Of a stretch of 64,000 nt of DNA, positions 53,401 through 64,000 are shown in pieces. Position 1 is the first letter of the stretch; every line of letters starts with the position of its first letter. The notes beneath the pieces are model-generated. The model was not told the origin of the DNA and ran no database searches. It saw only the letters and a list, made by a program, of their open reading frames with translations. Position numbers and translations under genes: made by a program. The DNA is from Escherichia phage Paul. The stretch lies in the sequence record NC_070992.1; one strand, written 5' to 3'.

Positions 53401-53430
53401 TGAGTGATCTCCTTATTTGAGAGTACTTTA

Positions 53431-53506
53431 AGAGGACGGGGAGATTCGAACTCACCAACCTAGAATTTAGAAGATTCTTGCTCTCATCCAATTGAGCTAC
53501 GCCCTC
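53431..53506 (-). tRNA. tRNA-Arg (anticodon UCU), no encoded CCA
   Basis: Folded by hand: acceptor GAGGGCG/CGTCCTC (one G-U), D-stem GCTC/GAGC, anticodon stem AGAAT/ATTCT, loop CTTCTAA, T-loop TTCGAAT; one extra nucleotide in the variable region; 3' end followed by TTAAAG. Confidence 0.7.
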
Positions 53507-53526
53507 TTAAAGTACTCTCTGTTTAA

Positions 53527-57487: not shown

Positions 57488-57931
57488 TCATTTTACCCTC
57501 GCCTCTTTGATGGGGTCGATGTATTTCTCAACGCCCCACTTGTGTTTACTATCTGCGTAGAAAACATCAGGTGCACATTGGCTTATTTTAGGGAAGGCTT
57601 GCGGGTCTTTCGTGCTCCCCTTAAACTTCTGTTTACCTCGAGTGCGACCATTACAGAAGATTTCTAACTTCTTCTCCTCTTCTGTTTTAGCTCCCCCGCT
57701 CTTTAACAAAGAACGTTTATGATCGGCTAACAATAACGCATCAGCACGGTGAACACGATGGCCTACACGTTTTGCCACACTAGAAGGAATATGGGATTCA
57801 GCTTCAGCCTTTGCAGCACGACGTTTTAAACTACGCTTACTGACGTGGTTGGTTGCCTTTGGTTTTTCTTTCTCCAGTTCAGAGATAGCAAAACAACGCC
57901 CGCCCTTCATGCTGATTTTAGATTTAGCCAC
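57488..57931 (-). CDS. basic hypothetical protein
   Basis: 147-aa Lys/Arg-rich ORF. Confidence 0.35.
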   Translation of the reverse strand: MAKSKISMKGGRCFAISELEKEKPKATNHVSKRSLKRRAAKAEAESHIPSSVAKRVGHRVHRADALLLADHKRSLLKSGGAKTEEEKKLEIFCNGRTRGKQKFKGSTKDPQAFPKISQCAPDVFYADSKHKWGVEKYIDPIKEARVK

Positions 57932-58000
57932 AATCTTATTCCTTTTAGTGATAAATTATATCGGGCAAGCCCATCAAGGCGATAGGCTTGAACAAATAAC

Positions 58001-58210
58001 TTAATCAAGTAAACTAAATGATTTCCAACTACGTAGCAGGATTGTACCATCATCCATAGTCACGCATAACTTTAGTAGTTTCTTATTGGCACTGCTTACC
58101 GTTGTAATTCGTCCGGTTGTACATTTACCTTTATTACTATAAAGATACACTACACGACGACCTAACAGACGAGAGGGCGCTTTCTTAAATTCTGAAATGT
58201 TAGTGATCAT
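58001..58210 (-). CDS. hypothetical protein
   Basis: 69-aa ORF. Confidence 0.3.
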   Translation of the reverse strand: MITNISEFKKAPSRLLGRRVVYLYSNKGKCTTGRITTVSSANKKLLKLCVTMDDGTILLRSWKSFSLLD

Positions 58211-58431
58211 AATGCTTGATACCTTTGAATGTGTTCAATACGGGTGGATTGAGCAAATGACGCTTTAACAGCCATTTTCCTAACTTCTTCTTTACGCTGG
58301 TTAGTGTGTACAGTATCCCAATGGTTGTTATCACGTTGGCGCTGTAATATCTTACTACATTTGCGATGATTTCCCGTGCTGCGATGTTTCTCACAAATAG
58401 GACACTTGCCAAAATTGCTACTGAATATCAT
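58207..58431 (-). CDS. small zinc-finger protein (possible minimal HNH-like)
   Basis: GKCPICEKHRSTGNHRKC ... HWDTVH; preferred over the overlapping alternative-frame ORF 58200..58412. Confidence 0.3.
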   Translation of the reverse strand: MIFSSNFGKCPICEKHRSTGNHRKCSKILQRQRDNNHWDTVHTNQRKEEVRKMAVKASFAQSTRIEHIQRYQAL

Positions 58432-58655
58432 TTTCTCAATCCCAACTTTCTTAAGATACGGCCTAACGTTGTTTCTTGCGTGATAATATAGCTGATCGCT
58501 TCACGTTCCAACGTTTCAATCTTCATTGGTGACGGATACCATTCACCGGTAATAACACATTTACATTCAACGCCATACTTTTTAGATAGGCGGTAATGTT
58601 GACCGTTGACAAGATTTCTATAGATCGTGGTATGCGTAATTAACATGATCGTCAC
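58428..58655 (-). CDS. hypothetical protein
   Basis: 75-aa ORF. Confidence 0.3.
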   Translation of the reverse strand: MTIMLITHTTIYRNLVNGQHYRLSKKYGVECKCVITGEWYPSPMKIETLEREAISYIITQETTLGRILRKLGLRK

Positions 58656-58757
58656 CTTTGATTAAATTCTTTGATTAATGCACTAAATCAATGCACTGAT
58701 AAAAGAAAAGGCGCTACCCATTAAGATAGCGCCTTATGTTTATTCAAATTGTCTTAC

Positions 58758-59657
58758 TTATGCTGCCTGACGTGCTGCCATAATCTCAGCCGCTTTACGC
58801 AATACTTCTTCTTCTTCTGCTTTCGCAGCTTGTTCGGTACGGGTAGCAACCGTTGAAGAGATACGACCGCGCAGGCTTTCTAACTTCTCCTGCATTTTGG
58901 CAATGGTGGATTCCATTTCATCGGCATACGAATCCAGTGATTCCAGTTCCTTGCTTGATGCGTTCATCAGATAATCATCCGAGATCGCTACCGTAGAGGC
59001 CGTGATTTTCTTGATGAGTGAGTCGAATGACTTCTTAACCTTGCCTACTTCTTCACTCAGGGCGATAGTGTTATCACTAGTAGCGCCGTTGCGCTCATCA
59101 GCCAGCAATTTGGCTTCGATACGGATTGCATTCAAGCGTTCAACTAAAGCGTAAATATCCTGATTAAAATCTTCCTTGTTTTTCGCCGGGATTTGCAGGT
59201 GTGCTGCCACGTTGTCATTGCAACCCTTGTAAAAGTTAGGATTATCGACTTCAATTTCACGGCCTAAAGCAAAGTTTTCGAAAGCGTTTGACCAGCGAGC
59301 GCGGTTTTGTTCCATTTTGGCCTTAATTTGCGCTTCTTTCGCATCTTCTTTCGCTTTCGCCTCACCTTCCAGATTAATCCACTTCTTACGACCGTTCGCC
59401 GCATCAGTGTTAAACTTGATAGGAGTTAAGAAAGTAATTGCAGTGGCAATAACATCCATATCACGGAAACGTTCAGTTAACAAGAAGTCAACCGCCGCCT
59501 GCAATACGTCCAGCTTCTTACCATTACTGCGGAAGTGCTGTAAGTGCCCTAACAGGAAGTTAGAAACATCTTGTTTGATCGCCGCGTTATTACTGCGAAT
59601 GTTGTTAGCCAGAGCATTAAAACCGGATTCGTTAACCAGAGTAAAGATTTTAGCCAT
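58758..59657 (-). CDS. hypothetical coiled-coil protein (first gene downstream of the repeat-rich region)
   Basis: Track ORF 58758..59666 (GTG); probable start is the ATG at 59657 after SD AAAGGTGA. Confidence 0.4.
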   Translation of the reverse strand: MAKIFTLVNESGFNALANNIRSNNAAIKQDVSNFLLGHLQHFRSNGKKLDVLQAAVDFLLTERFRDMDVIATAITFLTPIKFNTDAANGRKKWINLEGEAKAKEDAKEAQIKAKMEQNRARWSNAFENFALGREIEVDNPNFYKGCNDNVAAHLQIPAKNKEDFNQDIYALVERLNAIRIEAKLLADERNGATSDNTIALSEEVGKVKKSFDSLIKKITASTVAISDDYLMNASSKELESLDSYADEMESTIAKMQEKLESLRGRISSTVATRTEQAAKAEEEEVLRKAAEIMAARQAA

Positions 59658-60480
59658 GATATTCACCTTTCAATTGTAAGGGCGCTATTGCCCCGCTCTC
59701 TATGAGCTTGCTTAAGTCACTATTAACTTAACTCTAACCACTCACTATTAAGTAGTTATAGGTAAGTGGGGCGGTCTTATCAGGAGTTAACCTTGCCGCC
59801 CCCTTATCCGTGATGTTTCATCTGGTATCTTTAATTAGTCGCTATAAACGAAGCCGACCTGATAGCGATGATCAATCATCACAATAAGGCTATGCGTCCG
59901 ATTCTATTTAATTACATTGCTGTAACCGTCGGCAATATCGTCTACTTTGTTTTCGCTCCCGCTTATCCTTTTATATCAGCTCTCTATCGCTAGTCATCGC
60001 CCACTACGGGATACTATTGCGAAAGAGTCACTAACCGCCTAGTATTCCGGCGTTTTATATCTTTCAGCAGGTTTACTACATAACCCGACTATGTACTTTC
60101 ATCTTATGATGAATCTCAAGCCGTTCACATCGTAAACGTTCGCATTAAACCTTATTGTTAAATAGCAATTTGCCACTTTTCAACCACTCCCCGCCGCTCT
60201 CAATTGAGCGTTATTTCTTCGGGCTTGCCTACCCTGATTAACTTCTTTCACTGTAGCGCCTTGTTAGCGATGACCGCCGCTACCCTTAACCGTGGGCGAT
60301 TAGCTTAAGTCTTTGCGTGCACTCAATGAATCCGTTTATCAGTGGTGACGTTTCCAGTAAGGGATTGTAAGGCTGTTTTCTCTGATAGTTTAGAGAGTCT
60401 TACACCGTTTTATCTGGTATGTTATCCGATGGTTATTATCATCTAACATATTCAACCGATATAGGAGAATGTTTAAATTA

Positions 60481-60491
60481 TTAAAGAGCGG
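60481..60491 (+). repeat. TTAAAGAGCGG motif, copy 1 of 4
   Basis: Same 10-11-mer recurs at 60715, 61027 and 61137 in an ORF-poor region. Confidence 0.5.
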
Positions 60492-60571
60492 TAAATCTAT
60501 CAGTGTGCTTTCTCACACTATGCAACCGTTAGCCGTTGTTACGCTTTCCACTTAAGCGATGATTTGCTTAG

Positions 60572-60609
60572 TGAGTGCTCATTATGAATCAGGCTGTTTT
60601 CGCTGTCAA
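60572..60609 (+). repeat. direct repeat copy A (TGAGTGCTCATTATGAATCAGGCTGTTTTCG...TGTCAA)
   Basis: 31-nt identical core plus flank shared with 61060..61097. Confidence 0.6.
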
Positions 60610-60714
60610 CCGCTTTTTAATCTTTTTTCGTCGTTCCCGCTATTGGGAGGATATATCAATCAGCTTTATTTGATTGAGGATTAAGCGGTGAGGCTTAACT
60701 TATGATTCATATTG

Positions 60715-60725
60715 TTAAAGAGCGG
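60715..60725 (+). repeat. TTAAAGAGCGG motif, copy 2
   Basis: Exact match. Confidence 0.5.
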
Positions 60726-61026
60726 TGTAGCATTTACAGCTTAACACATCGTGTTAGCTTGTCAATCTCTTTTTATCATCTTCTTTTATTCTTTTCCCTT
60801 ATCTCGCGTGAATCTATGCGAAAGGGCAAGATGATAAGTCTGATTTGTCTTTTAGGAATCTAGTGCGCTTTCAAGCATTAATCTTTTGAAAGTATCGAAC
60901 AAATAAGGCTTATTGATATTGCTTATTGCCCGCCTGCGTCACGTATGAATCAGGAATCAATTCTACCGATTAACTGAGCGCCTTATAGTAATGACGTTGC
61001 CGCCACCTGTAAGACAAATCATGTTT

Positions 61027-61037
61027 TTAAAGAGCGG
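61027..61037 (+). repeat. TTAAAGAGCGG motif, copy 3
   Basis: Exact match. Confidence 0.5.
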
Positions 61038-61059
61038 GATGTTTTAAGTCATCGCTGAC

Positions 61060-61097
61060 TGAGTGCTCATTATGAATCAGGCTGTTTTCGGTGTCAA
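61060..61097 (+). repeat. direct repeat copy B
   Basis: Near-identical to 60572..60609 (single mismatch C/G in the flank). Confidence 0.6.
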
Positions 61098-61136
61098 TAC
61101 TCTTTTTGAGAATATTTTCACTTTCTAGCCTGATTT

Positions 61137-61146
61137 TTAAAGAGCG
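61137..61146 (+). repeat. TTAAAGAGCG motif, copy 4
   Basis: 10-nt match. Confidence 0.45.
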
Positions 61147-61511
61147 TAGCACTTTCATTGTGCGTCTTACTGTCGGTATTCCTACCGCTCCCCGTTGAAG
61201 CCTTTTACCGTGATGCTAATCACCTATCGAGGAGTTTTACTTCTTGTTGTTGCTTACTGCTTACTACGGGATTCATATTAATATACAGGAAAATCCTGTC
61301 AATACCCTTTTTTCAAATTATTTTTCATCTCACTGTTTTATAAAGGAATTTATTTTATTGTCGGTAGGACACCGGAAGAAATCAGGAGGTAAAGGAATGG
61401 GTGCGCGTGATACATCATAGAAAACGGCTTGTAAAGCCATAATAAGCGTCCTAAAACACATCACAACGAGCTAAAAGGGAGTAAGGCATACAATCACCTC
61501 ATAAAAGAGAA

Positions 61512-61530
61512 AAGCCTCACTAGGAGGCTT
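61512..61530 (-). terminator. putative intrinsic terminator (minus strand)
   Basis: AAGCCTC-CTAGT-GAGGCTT hairpin followed by TTCTCTTTTAT. Confidence 0.45.
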
Positions 61531-61605
61531 ACAGGAAGGATTAGAGAATCAGATAAATTATGACCATAGGCATGACTACGGCACAATACAGGAGAAAGAT
61601 TAAGC

Positions 61606-61971
61606 CTATGGATTTACACATTGACCATTACCGGATGCCATTTCATTCATGGACTCATCAAAGAGCGTCAACGATGATCGCATCAAGTGATCTACCGTTA
61701 TTTGCTTGCCAGTGGTTTCATTCACCAACAGAATAGTTTTATCATATGATTGCACATGATCGAAATCATTTACATGTAAAATAATAACTTTAGGTGACTT
61801 TTTACCAGTGTCATAATTCTCAATCAAATAGGTGCACTGTAAACCGTCAACCGTATCAGGGGAGAATGTTGCAGCCTTAACGCTACCCATAGCCGATAGC
61901 AGGACACCCAACAGAAGAACAACCAGAAAGAAGCCTACAACCGTTTTAATGACGAATTTAATAAACCACAT
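61606..61971 (-). CDS. membrane-anchored hypothetical protein
   Basis: N-terminal TM/signal anchor (VVGFFLVVLLLGVLLSAMG). Confidence 0.4.
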   Translation of the reverse strand: MWFIKFVIKTVVGFFLVVLLLGVLLSAMGSVKAATFSPDTVDGLQCTYLIENYDTGKKSPKVIILHVNDFDHVQSYDKTILLVNETTGKQITVDHLMRSSLTLFDESMNEMASGNGQCVNP

Positions 61972-62073
61972 AGCAATAAACCTTTAGTTAGAAAACGTAA
62001 GAATAAATCATATCAGTGACGAATAGCAGGAAGGTCGCACCAAATAAGCAACGCCAAAAATAATCATGAATCA

Positions 62074-62328
62074 TTAGTTGCCCTTACCTTTAAATAATGC
62101 TACTCTAAGCAGTTCGACTTCTTCCAGCGATAAGAGAATCCGACGTTGCGCCAAATACTGACCAGCTAGCAGGGTATCCATGATTAAAGCAACAGCGGGA
62201 AAACTCACCGTTTTAATATTATCACCGACAATAAACAAGATTAAACACTTGTCAGAGTCATCCGTATAAGAGAAATCAATCTCACCGTAATTATGAGTCG
62301 GAATAGTAAAGCTATGCTCTTTAGTCAT
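62074..62328 (-). CDS. hypothetical protein
   Basis: 84-aa ORF. Confidence 0.35.
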   Translation of the reverse strand: MTKEHSFTIPTHNYGEIDFSYTDDSDKCLILFIVGDNIKTVSFPAVALIMDTLLAGQYLAQRRILLSLEEVELLRVALFKGKGN

Positions 62329-62572
62329 GTATTAATCCTTCATTAAGCAGGTTAACCAGTGACAAATCACCGTCAATATAGATTGATTTGAAATCTTCAC
62401 GGGTAATTTCGAAATCAGCAAAGGCTAGCCAATCTTTAAGAGGCTGATATTCCATCCTGCAAAAAGTGATAACAGGTAACGTTATCTGACCATCAAGTGT
62501 ATTAAACATAATAGATTGCTCGCCAACAAAACAAGAAAAGCCGTTTGATAATTTAACTTCTTTAATAGCCAT
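62321..62572 (-). CDS. hypothetical protein
   Basis: 83-aa ORF coupled to the downstream gene. Confidence 0.35.
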   Translation of the reverse strand: MAIKEVKLSNGFSCFVGEQSIMFNTLDGQITLPVITFCRMEYQPLKDWLAFADFEITREDFKSIYIDGDLSLVNLLNEGLIHD

Positions 62573-62597
62573 TTTTACACTCCCAAAAATAGGTTAT

Positions 62598-63470
62598 TTA
62601 CTTACTAGCCTTAATGCAGTTGGCTAAATTAACATGAACGGTATAAACAGCATTATCAGCGTTATTGTAAACCGTGGTGGCAATCATCGACTCGTTAACC
62701 GGACCATAACTCACTAGATTAGTTACAGCTTTAACGTCTTCGTAACGTTGTACAGTGCCATACGTCACCATATCCGCATCTTTATCAGTACGCTTGAGAA
62801 CTAGATCACTGTTAGGCTGATTATCTAACGTTTTAGATTGAAAGAGAACGCCATCATTAGTAACGTTGCTAAATTTCATCTTTAGCACGATATTATTGCC
62901 GTCACTATCGGCACCGTTGCAAATCATCCAACCCTTATTGATGGAACTAGAGAAGACACTAGCCGCATCAGTTGCAGGAGCAGGACTAGCGATAGCCTTA
63001 TCAGAAAGAGATGTGACCAGTGCACTAACACCAATAGCTGCAACCAGTGCATAACTTGCCAGATTAACAGACTTCATAATCTTACTTGCAACAGTAGGCT
63101 TGATTGGCTGTTTCTTAGTTTTCTTGTTCCATGCTTCAACCATGACAGACAAGCGGGATAATTCAGCTTTCACATCGCGGCATGACTCAGGCCAATCCTT
63201 CTGATTCCAGCTATCTAGATTTGCTTGAATGTAGCAATTTATAGCGTCCTGCATATCAGTAAAACCGTTCTCTTTGAACGTGCTTTCATCTTCACACTGT
63301 AAGGCGTTCGCAGTAGAGTTAATGATCAAGCAAGCCAGCATTACAGAGTTTTTGAATCCTTTACGTGCGCTTTCGTTTTCCATCCACGCATCAGGACTAC
63401 CAACAGATAAGCCTAAAGAGGAAAGACTTTCGTTTGCTTTGTTCAATTGGTTAATTGCTACTTTAGACAT
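62598..63470 (-). CDS. hypothetical protein with a central TM segment
   Basis: 290-aa ORF with SD AAGGAA; hydrophobic stretch LASYALVAAIGVSALV. Confidence 0.4.
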   Translation of the reverse strand: MSKVAINQLNKANESLSSLGLSVGSPDAWMENESARKGFKNSVMLACLIINSTANALQCEDESTFKENGFTDMQDAINCYIQANLDSWNQKDWPESCRDVKAELSRLSVMVEAWNKKTKKQPIKPTVASKIMKSVNLASYALVAAIGVSALVTSLSDKAIASPAPATDAASVFSSSINKGWMICNGADSDGNNIVLKMKFSNVTNDGVLFQSKTLDNQPNSDLVLKRTDKDADMVTYGTVQRYEDVKAVTNLVSYGPVNESMIATTVYNNADNAVYTVHVNLANCIKASK

Positions 63471-63514
63471 TTGATATTCCTTCTGGTTGATGAAAACTAC
63501 AAACTACACTCGCA

Positions 63515-63542
63515 ACTATATAATAAAGGAAAAGGCTGTCAA
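63515..63542 (-). promoter_or_regulatory. sigma-70-like early promoter candidate (TTGACA-N16-TATAGT)
   Basis: Minus-strand -35 TTGACA (63542-63537), 16-nt spacer, -10 TATAGT (63520-63515), about 45 nt upstream of the gene starting at 63470. Confidence 0.5.
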
Positions 63543-64000
63543 CCATTTATTTTCTAACTTTCTTATAACTCACTGAAAACTAAAGGAATTTAATTTACTT
63601 AACCTTCCATACTCAGAGCATCAGCTTACTGCTTATTGTTACTTTATAACACTAACGCTAACGCTACGGGTAGCAGACCAACAGGCCGGAACACGGGGGA
63701 GCATACAGCCGCAGAACAGACCACGGGGAGTATAGCTCAATAGTGCGGTAGTAATATACCACTTAAATAATTAGTTAACTATTAAAGACTCATACACATC
63801 GAACGTTAAAAGAAAAGACCAACAGAACGCTGAAAAAGGAAAAGAATAAAAGAAACATAATCTTTCCACTTAATTAATACATACATCATTATTGCACTCA
63901 TAATCCTTACTATTGAAACTATTTACACTCAAACTATGGGGGGCTGAACGGTAACAATACGGTATTATTAGACCTGTTATGATTGTGCCTGTACAGTGCT

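Follow-up and report, generated by a model that had tools for sequence, protein, structure and literature searches.

Genome context and organization of the spacer

The window analysed here is a stretch of 64,000 nucleotides (nt) from Escherichia phage Paul (NC_070992.1), which megablast of the region assigns to the phiEco32-like Kuravirus group (Gordonclarkvirinae). The subject of this work is a spacer of about 1.95 kb between the homologues of gp125 and gp124 (phi32_125 and phi32_124), which carries tandem sigma70 promoters, several copies of the RNA element boxA and a long leader predicted to be highly structured. The region is 92-95% identical to phiEco32 72,729-74,775, to SU10, to WFI101126 and to about 95 other Escherichia/Shigella phage records; the spacer is found in about 99 sequenced phages of these hosts, with a length of 1.8-2.3 kb among relatives, and nearly all depositors left it unannotated. 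Every signal in it lies on the minus strand, which is the early-transcribed strand and the one that encodes the flanking early genes. In the 77.55-kb linear phiEco32 record the region occupies 72.7-74.8 kb, an internal position about 2.8 kb from the nearer end.

A first-pass annotation, made from the sequence alone, had described this region as poor in open reading frames (ORFs), with two long direct repeats, a third partial copy of them and four copies of a 10-mer, TTAAAGAGCG. The description holds: the ORF list contains only short ORFs between the gene starting at 59657 and the gene ending at 61606, both on the minus strand; the direct repeats lie at 60566-60609 and 61054-61097 (44 nt, 93% identical, 488 nt apart); exact copies of TTAAAGAGCG are found at 60481, 60715, 61027 and 61137; and the partial copy, TATGAATCAGG, can be read directly from the sequence at 60944. 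The region is not an assembly artefact, since the spacer recurs in about 99 sequenced Escherichia/Shigella phages. Among the functions that had been offered for it, an array of early promoters proved right for the long direct repeats, which hold minus-strand TTGACA-17-CATAAT and correspond to sigma70 promoters of SU10, while iterons or operators, a replication origin and a packaging or terminal-repeat region did not stand, as discussed below. The structured RNA that fills the ORF-poor part, and that is the most unusual feature of the spacer, had been missed. The elements upstream of the leader fold, in the order of transcription, are the following.

61606-61971, minus strand: gp125 homologue (phi32_125), 121 amino acids (aa), upstream flank of the spacer
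61502..61530, minus strand: intrinsic terminator at the end of the gp128-gp125 early operon upstream, made up of hairpin AAGCCTCCTAGTGAGGCTT and a U-tract (terminator scan)
61275..61302, minus strand: predicted promoter P1, TTGACA-16-TAATAT, with the A-rich UP-like tract GAAAAAAGGGTA upstream
61135..61145, minus strand: boxA1, GCTCTTTAAAA, in the context CGCTCTTTAAAAATCAGG; flavour of the rrn 16S-23S spacer (compare TGCTCTTTAAAAATCTGG of the rrnB spacer)
61069..61097, minus strand: predicted promoter P2, TTGACA-17-CATAAT, 11 of 12 consensus positions, UP-like A-tract; within the repeat copy 61054-61097
61025..61035, minus strand: boxA2, GCTCTTTAAAA, located about 27 nt past the inferred start of P2
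60944..60954, minus strand: decayed promoter core CCTGATTCATA without a -35 box, comparable to the spacer and -10 box of P2 and P4; it is the third partial repeat copy
60738..60765, minus strand: predicted promoter P3, TTGACA-16-TAAGCT, UP-like tract; its -10 box is TAGAAT in the SU7 clade
60713..60723, minus strand: boxA3, GCTCTTTAACA, located about 9 nt past the inferred start of P3; consensus kept in all 15 aligned spacers
60581..60609, minus strand: predicted promoter P4, TTGACA-17-CATAAT, UP-like tract; within the repeat copy 60566-60609 and present in 15 of 15 genomes
60501..60520, minus strand: boxB-like hairpin UAGUGUG-AGAAAG-CACACUG, 11 nt upstream of boxA4; loop invariant, stem covarying
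60479..60489, minus strand: boxA4, GCTCTTTAATA, in a 24-nt block that is invariant except at the consensus N, GAUUUACCGCUCUUUAAYAAUUUAAAC

The promoter array

The four predicted promoters match the sigma70 consensus at 9-11 of 12 positions, with spacings within 16-18 nt, and the A-rich tracts that precede them are presumably similar to UP elements. Both 44-nt direct repeats hold TTGACA-17-CATAAT on the minus strand. P1 is kept in phiEco32, SU10, EK010 and one further locus (L007). The array as such is already known: the SU10 paper reports that, as in phiEco32, three sigma70 promoters are found in the homologous spacer, and the early promoters listed in its Table S2 at 73996, 73668 and 73511 are the homologues of P2, P3 and P4. 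Three of the four promoters are therefore published for SU10, and the start sites used here are predicted. The same paper places a terminator downstream of CDS121, and in SU10 a terminator is annotated at the place homologous to that of the window.

In many genomes the distance from a boxA to the -35 box of the next promoter is constant at 47-48 nt, and an inverted repeat, AAUCAGGCU / AGCCUGAUU, brackets the UP/-35 region of P2 (61145-61097 in the window, and equivalents elsewhere). These two features suggest either that the duplicated unit consists of boxA plus promoter, or that an RNA hairpin forms in read-through transcripts. A further promoter-like sequence, TTGAAA-18-AACAAT at 60183-60154, was rejected: it occurs in the window only, relatives reading TTAAAA, and it is base-paired in the consensus fold of the leader.

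The boxA array

The 10-mer TTAAAGAGCG is the reverse complement of CGCTCTTTAA, and its form on the transcribed strand extends to CCGCTCTTTAA(C/A/T)AAT. The gamma-proteobacterial boxA consensus is GYTCTTTAANA, in which C4 and U6 are critical (PMC5725501), and all four copies are exact matches to it, including these two positions (61145-61135, 61035-61025, 60723-60713 and 60489-60479, minus strand). With at most one mismatch allowed, TTAAAGAGCG has 11 matches in the window against 3.9 +/- 1.8 expected, a number that none of 100 shuffles reaches; matches to the boxA consensus are five against 0.72 expected, and four of them fall on the minus strand within 670 nt. Each of these four lies about 9-120 nt downstream of a sigma70 promoter, in untranslated RNA.

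The same arrangement is found in the relatives. Across the spacers of 15 genomes the transcribed strand carries 62 matches to the boxA consensus and the opposite strand none, where chance would give 0.06 per strand; there are 4-6 consensus copies per spacer, and the order promoter-boxA-promoter-boxA is kept in all 15 genomes, which belong to three genera. The alternation persists also where the distal intervening DNA is mosaic or has been replaced, in some cases with a small extra ORF. The likeness extends beyond the element itself. The rrnB operon has boxA copies in its leader (TGCTCTTTAACAATTTATCAG) and in its 16S-23S spacer (TGCTCTTTAAAAATCTGG), and the phage copies share the 3' flanks of the rrn elements (AAAAATCWGG and AACAATTTATCA), as seen in boxA1 of the window (CGCTCTTTAAAAATCAGG) and in relatives (CCGCTCTTTAACAATTTATCATC).

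The last module contains an additional element. The boxB-like hairpin upstream of boxA4, helix 3 of the consensus fold, has a sequence, UGAGAAAGC, which resembles UGAGAAAAAGC of the rrnB leader, and at its pair 63/76 UA, present in 15 sequences, gives way to CG in 11 others and to AU in two. A boxB-type hairpin upstream of boxA is limited to the P4 module, the hairpins before the other copies being short and not conserved.

Two other sequences resemble boxA. The look-alike GCUAUUUAACAA at 60168-60150 was not counted as a fifth copy: C4 is replaced by A and the sequence is base-paired in the RNA fold. It belongs to a stretch, GCAAAUUGCUAUUUAACAAUAAGGU at 60172-60148, that is nearly invariant in 28 relatives, with a handful of single-base differences, and of which one half is predicted to pair within a hairpin and the other within the closing helix of leader domain II; it is probably not a functional boxA. 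An exact consensus match is also present on the plus strand at 57698-57708, inside a minus-strand gene, and is probably due to chance.

The structured leader RNA

The approximately 830 nt between boxA4 and gp124 are non-coding and are predicted to fold into two domains of about 300 nt each plus a series of hairpins; boxA4 itself is unpaired in the consensus fold, between the boxB-like hairpin and domain I. The parts of the leader, again in the order of transcription, are given below.

60179..60477, minus strand: leader domain I, a multibranch fold of about 300 nt closed by pairs of 60477-60465 with 60192-60179
60160..60178, minus strand: hairpin AAGUGGCA-AAU-UGCUAUUU, which holds the 5' half of the boxA-like GCUAUUUAACAA
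59881..60158, minus strand: leader domain II, a multibranch fold of about 280 nt closed by 60158-60149/59890-59881 and 60145-60141/59896-59892
59679..59880, minus strand: eight 3' hairpins, for example 59802-59768 and 59761-59732
60423-60407 and 59831-59815; 60273-60257 and 59871-59855 (positions in the window): sites of two recurring leader motifs
59655..59670, minus strand: Shine-Dalgarno sequence AAAGGUG and ATG of gp124, directly after the leader
58758-59657, minus strand: gp124 homologue (phi32_124), first early ORF downstream of the leader

The fold is derived from an alignment of 28 distinct leaders, about 920 nt each from the P4 start site to the gp124 ATG, taken from Kuravirus, Suseptimavirus, Nieuwekanaalvirus and metagenomic contigs. 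The consensus structure predicted by RNAalifold has 234 pairs, and at least one double compensatory change is seen in 74 of them; 99.4% of the 6,552 cells form standard pairs, and the double changes, which are not a count of independent events, amount to 400 cells in those 74 pairs. None of 500 shuffles matched the observed value on any of five measures, a control that does not translate into a probability, and when the 3' partners were slid by 1-3 columns only 35-48% of the cells were paired and 5-13 pairs were compensatory. The alifold energy of -236 kcal/mol is lower than the -157 of the reverse complement and the -84 +/- 7 of alignments with shuffled columns, while for the single sequence the minimum free energy (MFE) is -274 (z = -6.0) on the transcribed strand and -236 (z = -5.0) on the opposite one. 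The fold can be placed on the transcribed strand, because it contains 682 G·U cells and only 15 A·C cells.

Compensatory changes are seen in both domains and among the 3' hairpins. In domain I many are found in helices 5-18, such as at 187/200 (CG in 14 sequences, UA in 14) and at 264/327 (GC in 16, AU in 12); in domain II all six pairs of helix 25 covary, and helices 24 and 27 have seven pairs each with double changes. Among the 3' hairpins, five of the seven pairs of helix 34 are compensatory, different genomes having UUAGGCGG/CCGCCUGA or GGGAG/CUCCC in place of GGGGCGG/CCGCCCC, and so are five of the ten pairs of helix 36.

The conservation of the leader is not that of a coding sequence. 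Among the 28 aligned relatives no conserved ORF is present, the longest ORF on the transcribed strand having 21-89 aa and shifting in position, and the variable columns show no codon periodicity (137/133/140 by phase). Identity of the leader to that of other genomes is 75-93%, compared with 56-84% at the four-fold degenerate sites of gp124; for SU7, as an example, the values are 91% and 57%. The leader is under purifying selection and is more conserved than the synonymous sites of gp124.

No similar RNA was found outside the group. Rfam 15 gave no hit at E <= 1 over 58000-64000, and a search of the leader alone with lax filters returned only two sub-threshold hits, noise from eukaryotic snoRNA/snRNA families. 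A search of 5,426 E. coli genomes, distant mode included, gave no match to the leader, a result that speaks neither for mimicry of a host RNA nor for an antisense function, and a search for distant homologues by way of gp124 homologues, an IMG/VR protein scan and pattern scans of viral and metagenome contigs gave close relatives only. Its distribution is confined to about 96-99 Escherichia/Shigella phages, which also carry gp124. As modelled here, the leader is an RNA without known family. Neither the terminator scan nor reading of the sequence revealed a U-tract terminator between the leader and gp124.

Some sequences recur within the leader. The motifs A(U/C)ACCAGAU(A/G)AAAC and UCAUCGCUA(A/U)CA(A/G)G each have one copy in domain I and another in the region of the 3' hairpins, at the sites listed above. 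The boxA4 region ACCGCUCUUU (60492-60483) is complementary to AUAGAGAGCGG (59702-59692), located just 5' of the last hairpin and of the gp124 Shine-Dalgarno sequence, and a second copy of GAGAGCGG lies at 60199-60192. The MFE structure suggests a leader-trailer helix of the pre-rRNA kind, joining boxA4 to the 3' end of the leader and the Shine-Dalgarno sequence; it is not claimed here, its support being weak (z of -2 to -3, an uncompensated A-to-C mismatch in 6 of 28 leaders, use by the MFE structure in 9 of 28).

Proposed mechanism

From the arrangement of these elements we consider it likely that early transcription of the phage is controlled mainly from this spacer and that the spacer is built like a host rRNA operon, with promoters, boxA antitermination and a structured untranslated RNA. 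Host sigma70 RNA polymerase would initiate on the minus strand at P1-P4, four strong promoters arranged in tandem and each preceded by its A-rich UP-like tract, and about 9-120 nt after every promoter a boxA would appear in the nascent RNA; each promoter would need a boxA of its own, because the element must sit in the transcript of that promoter. It is established that untranslated transcripts are subject to termination by Rho, and that RNA polymerase becomes Rho-resistant on rRNA operons and CRISPR arrays when NusB-NusE is bound to boxA together with NusA, NusG and SuhB (PMC5725501, PMC7665894); the rrn antitermination complex is also a chaperone of rRNA folding. By analogy, we infer that the phage boxA copies bind host NusB-NusE(S10) and that, with NusA, NusG and SuhB, an rrn-type antitermination complex is formed which permits Rho-resistant elongation. 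The complex would be needed over the next 830 nt or so, and over a longer distance from P1-P3, because the leader is untranslated and no ribosome shields the transcript; it would also carry the polymerase into the long leftward early operon that starts with gp124. As a co-transcriptional RNA-folding chaperone, the Nus complex may in addition help the long-range helices of the leader to form. The phage would in this way use the host rrn antitermination system without any phage-encoded factor. The boxA array thus appears, on present sequence comparisons, to be an unreported member of a known mechanism.

Several points weigh against this interpretation. A GU-rich boxC comparable to UGUGUGGG, which in the rrnB leader lies 15 nt after boxA, was not found after any of the phage copies. 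Phage 7-11, a distant relative now placed in another family, has tandem early promoters and no consensus boxA; the array is specific to Gordonclarkvirinae, as this absence indicates. The 28 relatives are close to one another and mosaic or recombinant, which is the reason why neither the covariation counts nor the shuffle control can be read as independent events or as a probability; the consensus fold is a prediction, and some of its helices, for example 95-98 with 928-931, are invariant and hence unsupported. The leader transcript contains more G than C (C/G 0.77) and is highly structured, so that it may be a poor Rho substrate anyway, which weakens the stated need for antitermination; C-rich, rut-like windows are located mostly between the promoters and in the early part of domain I. 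As for novelty, the literature search found no paper linking boxA to phiEco32 or its group, but Savalia 2008 and Pavlova 2012 lay outside that search and may already note boxA or the transcripts.

With regard to the leader itself, our preferred guess is that it is an abundant early RNA, possibly cut from the gp124 mRNA, which acts in host takeover or controls the early operon. A more far-reaching proposal, which we put forward only tentatively and think less probable than its negation, is that the leader represents a new class of large functional phage RNA, expressed in the manner of rRNA, from rrn-like promoters and with the Nus factors as both antiterminator and folding chaperone, then released from the gp124 mRNA and acting in trans in host takeover as a ribonucleoprotein scaffold, as a decoy for a host RNA-binding or defence factor, or as a ribozyme. 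A 2025 paper on the structure of gp79 reports that the rrnB promoter is not completely inhibited by this protein; by analogy one may speculate that the rrn-like, UP-containing phage promoters might partly escape the mid-infection shut-off.

Alternative explanations

The repeats could instead belong to a replication origin, in which the 10-mer and the 44-nt repeats act as iterons that bind an initiator, or in which the promoters prime DNA synthesis in the style of the T7 primary origin or of ColE1 RNA II. A non-coding region with strong promoters and repeated motifs would suit this function, as would the flattening of the cumulative GC skew at about 60.2-61.7 kb, and the ColE1 pre-primer is itself a long structured RNA from a sigma70 promoter. 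The skew, however, keeps its sign here; the 44-nt repeats are themselves promoters; and the 10-mer, an exact match to boxA, always follows a promoter and occurs on a single strand (62 to 0). No DnaA box is found within about 5 kb. A ColE1-type system is further contradicted by the lack of any plus-strand promoter-like site in 59000-61700, hence of an RNA I-like antisense regulator, and by the course of the leader, which runs straight into the gp124 ribosome-binding site, whereas a ColE1-type origin lies at the 3' end of the pre-primer; moreover the excess of G·U over A·C cells (682 to 15) favours a fold of RNA over one of DNA. An origin at this place is accordingly quite improbable. Much the same holds for clustered DNA operators, which we regard as very improbable. 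TTAAAGAGCG would then be bound by a regulator, of the phage or of the host, that turns the early promoters on or off at the DNA level, and the near-fixed position of several copies 47-48 nt upstream of the next -35 box could suit an activator or repressor, in a phage whose early transcription is known to be shut off in mid-infection. The known shut-off, though, works through binding of gp79 to RNA polymerase and not to DNA, the other copies stand at variable distances downstream of start sites, and the motif is not palindromic and never found in the opposite orientation; a match that spans the full 11-nt boxA consensus and the rrn-specific 3' flanks is not expected of an operator. The iteron or operator reading of the first-pass annotation is therefore replaced by one in which the 10-mer is the complement of an RNA element.

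Two further explanations concern the region as a whole. Unannotated protein-coding genes, or a structure of single-stranded DNA such as a priming signal in place of an RNA, might account for its conservation: some relatives have leader ORFs of 44-89 aa, one depositor annotated many small coding sequences there, and the fold of the opposite strand, too, is more stable than that of shuffled sequence (z = -5.0). These ORFs are nevertheless conserved neither in position nor in length and show no codon periodicity, the conservation is explained by compensatory changes, and the transcribed strand folds better than its complement both in the alignment (-236 against -157) and as a single sequence (-274 against -236 kcal/mol); a fold of the other strand would have C·A mismatches in place of the 682 G·U wobble cells, and the leader lies directly downstream of four strong promoters, which leaves little more than a slight chance for either possibility. 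The least probable explanation, and an extremely unlikely one, is a packaging signal or terminal-repeat region, which had been considered for a non-coding region with direct repeats near one genome end and which adjoins a gene labelled 'terminase' in RefSeq. The spacer is internal, about 2.8 kb from the nearer phiEco32 end, and the label is attached to a 121-aa protein with a hydrophobic N-terminus and without Pfam support, probably by mistake.

Comparison with known systems

The closest cellular analogue of the spacer is the rrn control region, and its closest viral analogue is T7. The phage spacer shares with E. coli rrn the tandem strong sigma70 promoters with A-rich upstream tracts (P1/P2 with UP elements in rrn), boxA copies of both rrn flavours, leader and 16S-23S spacer, including their 3' flanks, a hairpin with the UGAGAAAGC loop region upstream of boxA4, as in the order boxB-boxA, and a long, untranslated and highly structured RNA product with long-range closing helices. 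Conversely, rrn has two promoters that share one leader boxA, whereas four promoter-boxA modules are found here; the phage has no boxC, and its RNA resembles neither rRNA nor any E. coli sequence and is followed directly by protein-coding early genes. The role of the Nus factors, moreover, is a predicted one in the phage.

In T7 (L040, NC_001604) an exact consensus boxA, CGCTCTTTAACAA (gaCGCTCTTTAACAAtc), is present at 813-823, between early promoter A3, which lies 63 nt before it, and gene 0.3; the literature search found no paper discussing it. Like phiEco32, T7 is a virulent podovirus with tandem host-polymerase promoters (A1-A3) near one genome end and with a boxA before the first early gene. 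Differently from the phage spacer, a single boxA is shared by three promoters, and the distance from boxA to gene 0.3 is about 100 nt (about 175 nt from the A3 start), compared with about 830 nt from boxA4 to gp124. The T7 early region has an RNase III site, R0.3, of which any counterpart in the Kuravirus leader would be hypothetical.

In lambdoid nut sites, too, a phage boxA on nascent RNA, with host Nus factors, makes the host polymerase resistant to termination, as is predicted here. The lambda nut site depends on the phage N protein, whose binding site is a boxB hairpin about 8 nt after boxA, CGCUCUUA. In the phage spacer the hairpin precedes boxA, which is of the full rrn form, and no hairpin lies directly after any of the boxA copies, as the lambda order would require. 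We know of no N-like protein in phiEco32-like phages, for which no systematic search was made, and the six flanking ORFs, to which the domain search was applied, contain no N-like Pfam domain.

In CRISPR arrays and in the suhB leader a single boxA after the promoter shields a long untranslated transcript from Rho (PMC7665894, PMC5725501). Those systems are chromosomal and have one boxA each, whereas the present one is viral and has multiple boxA copies, a structured RNA and then an operon. As an RNA, the leader can be compared with phage-borne families of Rfam such as GOLLD, ROOL and similar ones, which are hundreds of nt long, multi-domain, supported by covariation and of unknown function at the time of their discovery. 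It resembles them in its size, in its multi-domain fold with covariation support and in being borne by phages; it differs in that it runs on into an mRNA as its 5' leader, those RNAs being encoded by free-standing genes, and in its restriction to one coliphage subfamily.

A scan of IMG/VR indicated that at least two uncultivated viral families carry an extended rrn-like boxA, GCTCTTTAACAATTTATC. In one family a perfect TTGACA-17-TATAAT promoter immediately precedes boxA, in the other a conserved ACAGAATCACAGTGCATAACGG comes after it, and in both ORFs start within about 100-200 nt after boxA (the loci are L044, L047, L055, L058 and L060, and about 20 such as L043, L062 and L074). Of these, L060 and L062 were the two queried against sequenced phages, and neither gave a match. 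The promoter-boxA module thus recurs in phages; what sets the phiEco32-like group apart is the fourfold array together with the structured leader of 0.8 kb.

Neighbouring genes and other features

Pfam and PHROG searches of the flanking genes gave no functional clue. The 121-aa gp125 homologue (61606-61971, minus strand) is called 'terminase' in both RefSeq and PHROG, despite its hydrophobic N-terminus and without Pfam support; likewise, an 83-aa ORF at 62321-62572 (minus strand) bears the label 'polymerase' without Pfam support. Both names are probably propagated mislabels. A gene for tRNA-Arg with the anticodon TCT is present at 53430-53507 on the minus strand, and the tRNA/tmRNA scan detected nothing in the spacer. 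The distal part of the spacer is mosaic: in the SU7-like clade and in some other phages an ORF of 66-81 aa, absent from the window, is located between promoter-boxA modules (L008, L009, L010, L011 and L012, at spacer positions of about 320-750; 3829-4029 of L011 is SU7_114).

Significance

A 2022 paper on the related phage 7-11 stated that the antitermination strategy 'remains to be defined'. The organization described here offers a testable answer to the question of how phiEco32-like phages drive the host polymerase across an untranslated region of about 2 kb and into a long early operon. If the proposal is true, these phages borrow the rRNA antitermination machinery of the cell without the aid of a phage protein, and they would depend on the host factors nusB, nusE and suhB, a dependence relevant to phage therapy. 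Since T7 and at least two uncultivated phage families share the promoter-boxA module, N-independent use of boxA may be a general and overlooked strategy of virulent phages. Finally, the leader is a large RNA supported by covariation and without known family, carried by coliphages that are cultivable and genetically tractable, members of the BASEL collection among them, so that the function of this RNA is open to direct dissection.

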